Shown here: positions 16,156 to 16,337 of the stretch, one piece after another
How the letters are laid out: the number at the start of each line of letters is the position of its first letter
Numbering within the stretch: position 1 is the stretch's first letter
Source of the DNA: Eledone cirrhosa
Taxonomy: Eukaryota
Assembly (NCBI GenBank): GCA_964016885.1
Contig: OZ024747.1
Location: 52,700,001 to 52,764,000, forward strand
Direction of reading: 5' to 3'
DNA: 64,000 nucleotides
The notes under the pieces: generated by a model
What the model saw: only the letters and a program-made list of their open reading frames with translations
What the model was told of the DNA's origin: nothing
Database searches by the model: none
Translations under genes and position numbers: made by a program

Positions 16156-16337
16156 AGTTTTAATATAGATGAGATTCTACAGGACTAGAACTGTTTCATT
16201 CTTTAGAAATCATCAGGAATCTCAGAGAATGAAACAGTTCTAGTCCTGTAGAATCCCATCTATATTAAAACTTTTATACTATGCAATGTATTGAGTACCT
16301 TACTTACTGTGGTTACCTCCGTTTCAACCCGGAATAA

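Follow-up and report, generated by a model that had tools for sequence, protein, structure and literature searches.

Penelope-like elements (PLEs) of the Hydra clade are defined by RWK, DKT, CxCX5C and CxxC/CxH motifs, a C-terminal GIY-YIG domain and insertion into (TA)n (Craig et al. 2021, PMC8557442), the role of the hammerhead ribozyme (HHR) in Penelope-like elements being, according to the same source, still open. For PAc, in vitro data describe two internal RT starts bounding the tail, extension of both target strands, an uncut RNA substrate and a protein-assisted HHR (PMC11167929), and a model in which a circle is formed by paired cleavage at both HHRs has been put forward (PMC4209133). 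As to the ribozyme itself, natural U10.1-U11.1 mismatches have been described, cited as the best tolerated and as compatible with activity (Perreault et al., PMC3088659).

The 64,000-nt stretch of Eledone cirrhosa DNA analysed here (the window) contains complete and partial copies of a type I HHR. A sequence-only reading had assigned these to a non-coding unit of about 135 bp of its own, and had mentioned the link of type I HHRs to PLE pLTRs as background. That background link turned out to be the right answer: with good, though not complete, confidence we regard the motif as a type I HHR residing in the pLTR of a Hydra-clade PLE, its tiny TA-flanked units being likely abortive leader cDNAs copied from RNA that was likely uncut.

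Results

Hammerhead copies in the window

Positions in the element are numbered from the first A of stem I, taken as +1 (window 37110 or 16222). Complete HHRs lie at 16172-16222(-), 37060-37110(-) and 8740-8791(-), while 16227-16340(+), 12893-12942(+) and 7023-7094(+) hold incomplete or degenerate pieces. The copies of the family are as follows.

16172..16222, minus strand: HHR +1..+51, subfamily A; predicted cut 16178/16177 (sequence, descriptor scan)
16156..16222, minus strand: inverted piece +1..+67 of a PLE insertion, ending at the pLTR end and passing into (TA)n (blastn to intact element L104)
16223..16226, no strand: 4-nt junction between inverted and forward pieces (sequence)
16227..16340, plus strand: forward piece +22..+135 belonging to the insertion of 16156..16222; comprises the tail and the HHR's 3' half (blastn)
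36975..37110, minus strand: 136-nt copy +1..+136 (HHR 37060-37110 plus tail) in (TA)n, likely a run-off cDNA (96% identity to the L104 leader; 5' end at the pile-up site)
8656..8791, minus strand: older subfamily B copy, complete HHR 8740-8791 plus tail
8792..8832, plus strand: inverted remnant, internally deleted, head-to-head with the 8740 copy; end approximate (CTGATGA at 8792(+), sequence)
12893..12942, plus strand: inverted piece, HHR without its 5' core, of another, subfamily B-like insertion
12842..12887, minus strand: forward tail piece +70..+116 of the same insertion as 12893..12942
7023..7094, plus strand: lone degenerate HHR/pLTR-end piece, stem II and GAAA broken

The complete and partial copies are thus confirmed where they had first been seen, with corrections. 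The sequences at 16171-16223 and 16226 had been counted as separate copies; their positions hold, but a single insertion accounts for both, as its inverted and its forward half, and the 8740 and 12893 copies likewise consist of inverted and forward halves of single insertions. The HHR within 16171-16223 is also upheld, except for its seventh pair (16171/16223), which makes use of a junction base.

In each ribozyme, stem I (+1..+6 paired with +46..+51) is followed by CUGAUGA; stem II, of 3 bp, is closed by U·U, carries a 4-nt loop and leads into GAA; and stem III, of 4 bp (ACAG/CUGU), carries an 8-nt loop and leads into GUA. The cut is predicted after +45, that is between 16178 and 16177. On this position, as on CUGAUGA, GAA(A), ACAG/CUGU, GUA and U·U, our analysis and the sequence-only reading agree, and the call of a type I HHR stands: a CUGANGA, GAAA and NUH core is found with stems I to III, and the molecule's ends lie in stem I. 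A generic type I descriptor detects 6 HHRs in the window, 3 of them of this PLE family, against a mean of 0.1 in shuffles (n = 20), and a 26-nt core pattern has 32,737 matches in the 3.0-Gb genome as compared with 11 for the reversed control.

The Rfam search, proposed beforehand as a check, did not bear out the motif: the intact copy in L104 had no hammerhead match at E<=10, and Hammerhead_3 was found only at 16188-16240 with 23.1 bits, below its cut-off of 48.5. Over the whole window the 150 matches listed were all sub-threshold, almost all of them microsatellite-driven miRNA matches. This silence is likely a limit of model coverage. Folding z-scores of the three complete copies (-1.17, 0.28 and -0.72) were not significant either. 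Given that Rfam is silent and the folding energy ordinary, the case for the HHR rests on its core sequence and the conservation of that core.

Conservation, covariation and dimerisation of the ribozyme

The U·U at 10.1/11.1 is fixed in the family, being found in 270 of 274 copies from the fetched loci and, by eye, in 96/100 among the first genome matches listed. It had been regarded as a special variant; yet, by a by-eye count in Craig et al. File S2 (PMC8557442), A9 is followed and G12 preceded by U in 14 of 25 Hydra-family HHRs, in addition to the natural case of Perreault et al. An ACAG/CUGU stem III is likewise present in 4 of the 25 listed Hydra HHRs, with 2-nt loops (PMC8557442). Neither the U·U nor the closed stem III of this ribozyme is a discovery. 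Loop III measures 1-3 nt in all the Hydra HHRs listed there (PMC8557442), which leaves the 8-nt loop III as the sole distinctive trait of the present HHR.

Covariation was assessed on 15 distinct, hand-picked and mutually related rows, in which 94% of cells were paired. Among the 13 pairs, two in stem I vary at both partners (A-U/G-C; A-U/C-G/U-G/U-A), whereas stems II and III are near-invariant, with no covarying pairs. With these related, hand-picked rows, shuffles matched or exceeded the pair count in 419/500 cases, and the cell count and the score in 0/500; since the rows are related, the stem I covariation amounts to few events, and in B-type rows with a bulged U one stem I column is broken. 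Covariation in this HHR is modest. As to the earlier claim that stem I covaries, its UUUC/GAAA example, taken from the 8740 copy, is a minority variant: the subfamily of that copy mostly has GAAGCC (43/274 copies, against 4 with GAAACC). That the type I HHR is structurally selected is supported by pair +3:+49, which is A-U, C-G or U-G across subfamilies, while loop II, also noted before as variable, occurs in 20 variants among the 274 copies. This free variation of loop II suggests that there is no loop I-loop II contact.

The palindrome CUAG of the 8-nt loop III, in contrast to loop II, is retained in 261/274 copies, and the commonest loop III variant (11 copies, subfamily C) is a longer palindrome; as 12.5% of loop III permutations dimerise equally well, such a palindrome is not rare by chance. 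Its retention makes a dimer the predicted favoured form. Through CUAG the HHR self-duplex is predicted at -12.8 kcal/mol, and the active dimer reaches -18 to -27 kcal/mol as against -8 to -17 for two monomers (five copies; about 10-12 lower). Hairpin III alone is predicted at -1.4 kcal/mol, with a pairing probability of about 0.25 in the 51-mer. Monomer folding is geometrically possible in these models, the active monomer fold lying 0.3-3.4 kcal/mol from the MFE. The earlier view of a monomer-competent ribozyme is nonetheless not sustained, in view of the weak hairpin III, the dimer lying some 10 kcal/mol lower and a genome that bears no cleavage footprint (see below). The loop III region could alternatively be conserved for protein binding or promoter function.

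The carrier element

Of 30 loci fetched with the 136-nt unit, half extend upstream into common sequence and two extend downstream, into an ORF. The layout of the element is HHR (+1..+51), pLTR end (+60/+67), tail (to +136) and a 713-aa RT/GIY-YIG ORF from +182, then a 3' region rich in microsatellites and, 3.8-6.0 kb on, another HHR-pLTR. In elements with two pLTRs (n = 11), the unit measures 3,794-5,966 nt. Eight of these 11 terminate tail-less at the pLTR end in (TA)n, at +60..+72, with one older copy at +67, and 2/11 carry the tail to about +136. A protein search of the 3.0-Gb genome gave 10,556 candidates, and among the 150 scored many had an open 758-aa frame, which corresponds to the 713-aa protein when read from the ATG at +182. 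The motifs of this protein are as follows.

38: RWR (K to R)
116: DKT (in place of DKG)
347: YRDD
566: linker CxCX5C, CNCLNKEAC
586 and 602: GIY-YIG, VYKC and YIGMT
666: CxxC with catalytic E, CDLCISE (CxxC-x-SE)
683 and 694: catalytic N, LLNK, and CxH, CMH

By these motifs and by by-eye comparison with reference proteins the element is classified as a Hydra-clade PLE, every clade protein motif tested being present. Its ESM Atlas neighbours belong to HTH_animal/GIY-YIG/RVT_1 families; Pfam, queried with pieces of the ORF, returned no RT or GIY-YIG match, and a PDB sequence search no matches. A homologue search retrieved 1,274 proteins (best identity 52%), none of them named among the 120 matches listed. 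The ORFs of the subfamilies differ by about 27% in amino acids. Element 3' ends enter (TA)n, those of older B copies often (CA)n, and in one subfamily there are 5,161 exact tail-end-plus-TA matches in the genome (control 0). This is a young, very abundant, new family of a known clade. None of the titles and abstracts covered by the literature search describes this PLE family; Lunse et al. 2017, on PLE hammerhead dimers, may describe a similar variant.

As the unit of about 135 bp, with its HHR, pLTR end and tail, is found in ORF-bearing elements, it belongs to the PLE. The independent non-coding unit of the sequence-only reading is thereby replaced by the pLTR plus tail of elements of 3.8-6.0 kb.

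Within the tail, the motif TATTGAGTAC at +82..+92 (window 37029-37019) is invariant across subfamilies, and by eye similar words follow the HHR in Hydra-2_Amil and Hydra-1_Amil (Craig et al. File S7). From this pattern it is a candidate RT-binding signal.

Other hammerheads and PLE-like sequences

A second type I HHR family, whose stem II is long and whose stem III region is a short TATGTA, is present in the window at 35896(+), 36601(+) and 36490(-); all three copies end in (TA)n, and the 36490/36601 pair is head-to-head. This is likely another PLE family. A further short, TA-inserted family occupies about 32160-32300, 33750-33920, 34360-34505 and 44680-44885; it shows the inverted-plus-forward build and the tail motif GTATTGAGTAC of the HHR family, lacks the CUGANGA core, carries a CCGT-CGAA-ACGG hairpin, and is possibly the leader of a sister PLE whose RNA is structured differently. 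At 57850-58300 lies a tandem array of about 63-nt units, each with CTGAAGA, in which the descriptor recognised no complete hammerhead. Hammerhead-like cores at 48857(+) and 775(-), near (TA)n and with stem II then CGAAACG or a degenerate form of it, fail the stem I test of the descriptor. Outside the window, other ORF pieces of RT/GIY-YIG type adjoin elements of the family (L031:2324-4290(-), L110:6427-7899, L115:466-1668(-) and L032:9109-9591), the L115 piece directly after the (TA)n that follows a 3' tail, and L111:902(+) is a hammerhead-like motif of unrelated sequence whose stem II is long and whose loop III reads AATT. The genome holds several further PLE families nested in the same microsatellites.

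Where the copies end

Ends were mapped in a sample anchored by the tail end only, because selection for the HHR was to be avoided, and consisting of the first 90 of the 5,161 tail-end matches in genomic order (contig C1). Compilation of the mapped ends revealed that (i) forward 5' ends fall at -3..+3 in 29 of 90 loci and inverted pieces start there in 31 of 57, where about 1.4 and 0.6, respectively, are expected from the rate over +13..+60, (ii) only 1/90 forward and 1/57 inverted ends lie at -10..-4, giving a one-sided edge, while 28/90 forward copies reach beyond -10, (iii) the predicted cut site (+43..+49) has 4/147 ends against 2.3 expected, two of the four being one duplicated locus, and (iv) inverted pieces end at +54..+73 in 56/57 cases, mostly at +67 (27) and +60 (15). 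Samples of 30 loci from each of three other subfamilies gave 17/30 forward and 15/22 inverted ends at -2..+5 (C), 10/30 and 11/23 at +1..+6 (B), and 7/30 and 10/14 at -4..+5 (A2), with 2/149 ends at +43..+49 for the three together. Overall, there is no pile-up at the cut site (6/296 mapped ends), and no constant upstream exon is seen at 180 junctions (90 tail-anchored and 90 subfamily-sample loci). What is new here is the accumulation of 5' ends on the first bases of stem I, with no such peak at the cleavage site. None of the titles and abstracts covered by the literature search describes an end pile-up or strand transfer in PLEs. Contigs with loose ends before L104:2105 (+4) number 250 and 275 in two contig runs, of unspecified kind, from one sample; these counts agree with the pile-up, but are possibly non-independent and cannot show starts or expression.

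The loop II variant matched between forward and inverted pieces in 33/33 loci, with three variants segregating, which shows that both pieces derive from one donor. At the 16171 locus the halves differ at +51; the other loci are concordant there (37/37), but monomorphic. Most ORF-bearing copies behave otherwise than the tiny units: 4/30 ORF-bearing loci begin near +1 (two being a tandem pair), 18/30 extend more than 100 nt upstream, and of the 11 two-repeat elements 9 reach well beyond +1 on the upstream side, so that most full-length copies would require a template that is longer, circular or jumped.

Three further readings were considered and set aside. Pairing of -11..-4 with +57..+64 could lengthen stem I distally in A1, but subfamilies A2, B and C have not retained that upstream sequence; a splice acceptor at the CAG before stem I is at odds with the want of an upstream exon in common; and a separate lineage of short copies would require private variants, of which there are none.

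Origin of the one-sided edge

Subfamilies A1, B and C all retain TATAAATA at 29-30 nt upstream of +1, while the spacer has diverged. A spacing of about 30 nt between TATA box and start fits Pol II. In A2 TATAAA stands 33 nt from stem I, and in the single A3 copy 24 nt, yet the pile-up does not move. The TATA box alone does not, therefore, set its position; unless some other cause lies behind the edge, initiator or downstream elements must play a part. Being one-sided and common to both cDNAs, the edge points to an RNA 5' end.

Such another cause could be an RT stall or a processing site on a longer RNA, by way of a bound protein, an HHR dimer or a nuclease cut before stem I. This would agree with a pile-up that tracks the first bases of stem I and not the TATAAA distance (24-33 nt), with the CAG at or just before the pile-up in all subfamilies, and with the intron of D. 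virilis Penelope that ends at helix I (PMC4209133). We consider it unlikely, as no stable structure is predicted just upstream of +1, the 180 junctions have no upstream exon in common, and the near-empty interval at -10..-4 is the one-sided edge expected of a template end.

It is also improbable that the unit is a self-standing non-coding element of about 135 bp (SINE- or retrozyme-like), with a monomer-active HHR and short masters of its own, mobilised by the PLE enzyme in trans. Short copies do outnumber ORF copies, as the 5,161 exact tail ends in one subfamily illustrate, and the summed contig depth of HHR plus tail is hundreds of times that of the 5' ORF (two runs of one sample; this is not copy number). 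Given the internal promoter described for D. virilis Penelope (PMC2377424), a +1..+136 copy would be transcribable in principle, and the monomer fold is close to the MFE. Against this, short (n = 40) and extended (n = 23) copies share the same variants at similar frequencies with none private to the short ones, junctions are all different except for one segmental duplicate, short copies have no conserved TATAAA, and ends do not accumulate at the cut site. Nor do the loci examined contain head-to-tail arrays, the tandem units by which retrozymes are defined: copies are solo, head-to-head, or 3.8-6.0 kb apart around the ORF, apart from one direct pair at a distance of 551 nt (L024).

That the HHR is catalytically silent, and retained because it serves the PLE in protein binding or as a promoter element, is very improbable: the clean cut site among 296 mapped ends, the weak 3-bp stem II with its freely varying loop, and the unimpaired insertion of PAc in vitro with HHR mutants (PMC11167929) would suit it, but the catalytic core and GUA are kept across subfamilies with about 27% ORF divergence, position 7 is U or A, a variation also seen in active HHRs, compensatory changes occur in stem I, and the U·U at 10.1/11.1 is reported as activity-compatible (PMC3088659).

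Discussion

Proposed mechanism

The end pile-up and the common donor of paired pieces indicate that the tiny units are likely run-off cDNAs from uncleaved leader RNA. In the mechanism that we propose, Pol II would start at +1/+2, about 30 nt below TATAAA, as judged from DNA ends alone; the PLE endonuclease would nick both strands of (TA)n; and the RT would prime internally at +136 and at +60/+67, by analogy with PAc in vitro. Where the 5'-proximal copies of these sites are used, only 136 or about 67 nt would be copied before the RT runs off the RNA 5' end, and end-joining would then link both cDNAs head-to-head. The locus at 16156-16340 would thus represent 136- and 67-nt run-off cDNAs joined head-to-head in (TA)n, and 36975-37110 a single run-off cDNA.

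Cleavage by the ribozyme is most likely slow and conditional, relying on dimer formation via the loop III CUAG and/or on help from the element protein. Pairing of the 5' and 3' repeats of a full-length transcript would release unit-length RNA, which may circularise, and a circle would template more-than-unit copies. The upstream-extended ORF copies would need read-through RNA, a circle from paired HHR cleavage, or a jump of the 5' end to the 3' repeat; conditional dimer cleavage with a circle is favoured for them, although our data do not separate the three routes. We also entertain, as a doubtful extension, a retrovirus-like strand transfer, in which the RNA starts at the first base of the HHR and the strong-stop cDNA primed at +136 jumps to the 3' +2..+67 repeat, the ends being held by an HHR dimer (CUAG). 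If this were true, the 136-nt units, in their thousands, would represent jumps that failed, and the HHR would serve mainly to pair RNA ends and not to cut.

The value of this analysis lies in its end mapping. As a genomic read-out, it places the ends of integrated copies at the first base of the HHR and not at the cut site, and traces the halves of inverted insertions to one donor. It supports, in a second clade, the PAc result of uncut RNA and two internal starts, and offers an explanation for the thousands of solo and head-to-head hammerheads in animal genomes. With its intact ORFs and a 136-nt leader whose ends are mapped, the family is a compact system for the study of dimer cleavage, circle formation and strand transfer.

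Comparison with known systems

Non-LTR retrozymes, like the units studied here, are short sequences with a type I HHR and no coding capacity, and are related to PLE pLTRs (bioRxiv 10.64898/2026.07.22.740005; PMC7229834). As described in the preprint (bioRxiv 10.64898/2026.07.22.740005), they are head-to-tail tandem units with an HHR in each, whereas here the pieces are dispersed, single or head-to-head, and form no lineage of their own.

With the minimal HHRs of PLEs and the HHRs of fungal and protist PLEs (Cervera and de la Pena 2014, PMC4209133) the present ribozyme shares its type I topology, its location in PLTRs and its palindromic loop III; genomic motifs are there, too, mostly solo or in close opposite-strand pairs derived from truncated PLEs. 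Its stem III, of 4 bp with an 8-nt loop, stands between the metazoan minimal and the monomer-active fungal types, and its U·U replaces the G10.1-C11.1 conserved in the HHRs of that work (PMC4209133).

The Poseidon PLE of Anolis, PAc (Frangieh et al. 2024, PMC11167929), is alike in its two RT starts bounding the tail, its AT-rich target, the extension of both strands and the use of uncut RNA for insertion. It belongs to another clade, with an ORF beginning inside the HHR and RT starts within the ORF, whereas both RT starts proposed here precede the ATG (+182), within the 5' leader. The PAc HHR is also minimal, without the closed stem III seen here (PMC11167929).

The closest described systems are the Hydra-clade PLEs (Craig et al. 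2021, PMC8557442). Like these, the present element has a single ORF with RT and C-terminal GIY-YIG, RWK-like, DKT, CxCX5C, CxxC and CxH motifs, (TA)n targeting, and a type I HHR in the pLTR; the U·U (14/25 listed), the ACAG/CUGU stem (4/25 listed), partial tandem copies, inverted 5'-truncated copies and the tail are common to both. It differs in an 8-nt loop III as against 1-3 nt in the published Hydra HHRs, in a tail of about 69 nt as against the 30-40 quoted for PLEs, and in a unit of 3.8-6.0 kb with a microsatellite-rich 3' region as against generally <3 kb, the last difference being descriptive and not diagnostic (PMC8557442). Its HHR is unlike that of Hydra-1_Obim as published in the same work (PMC8557442), which makes the present PLE another family, and its tens of thousands of HHR copies set it apart from the published Hydra PLEs (PMC8557442).
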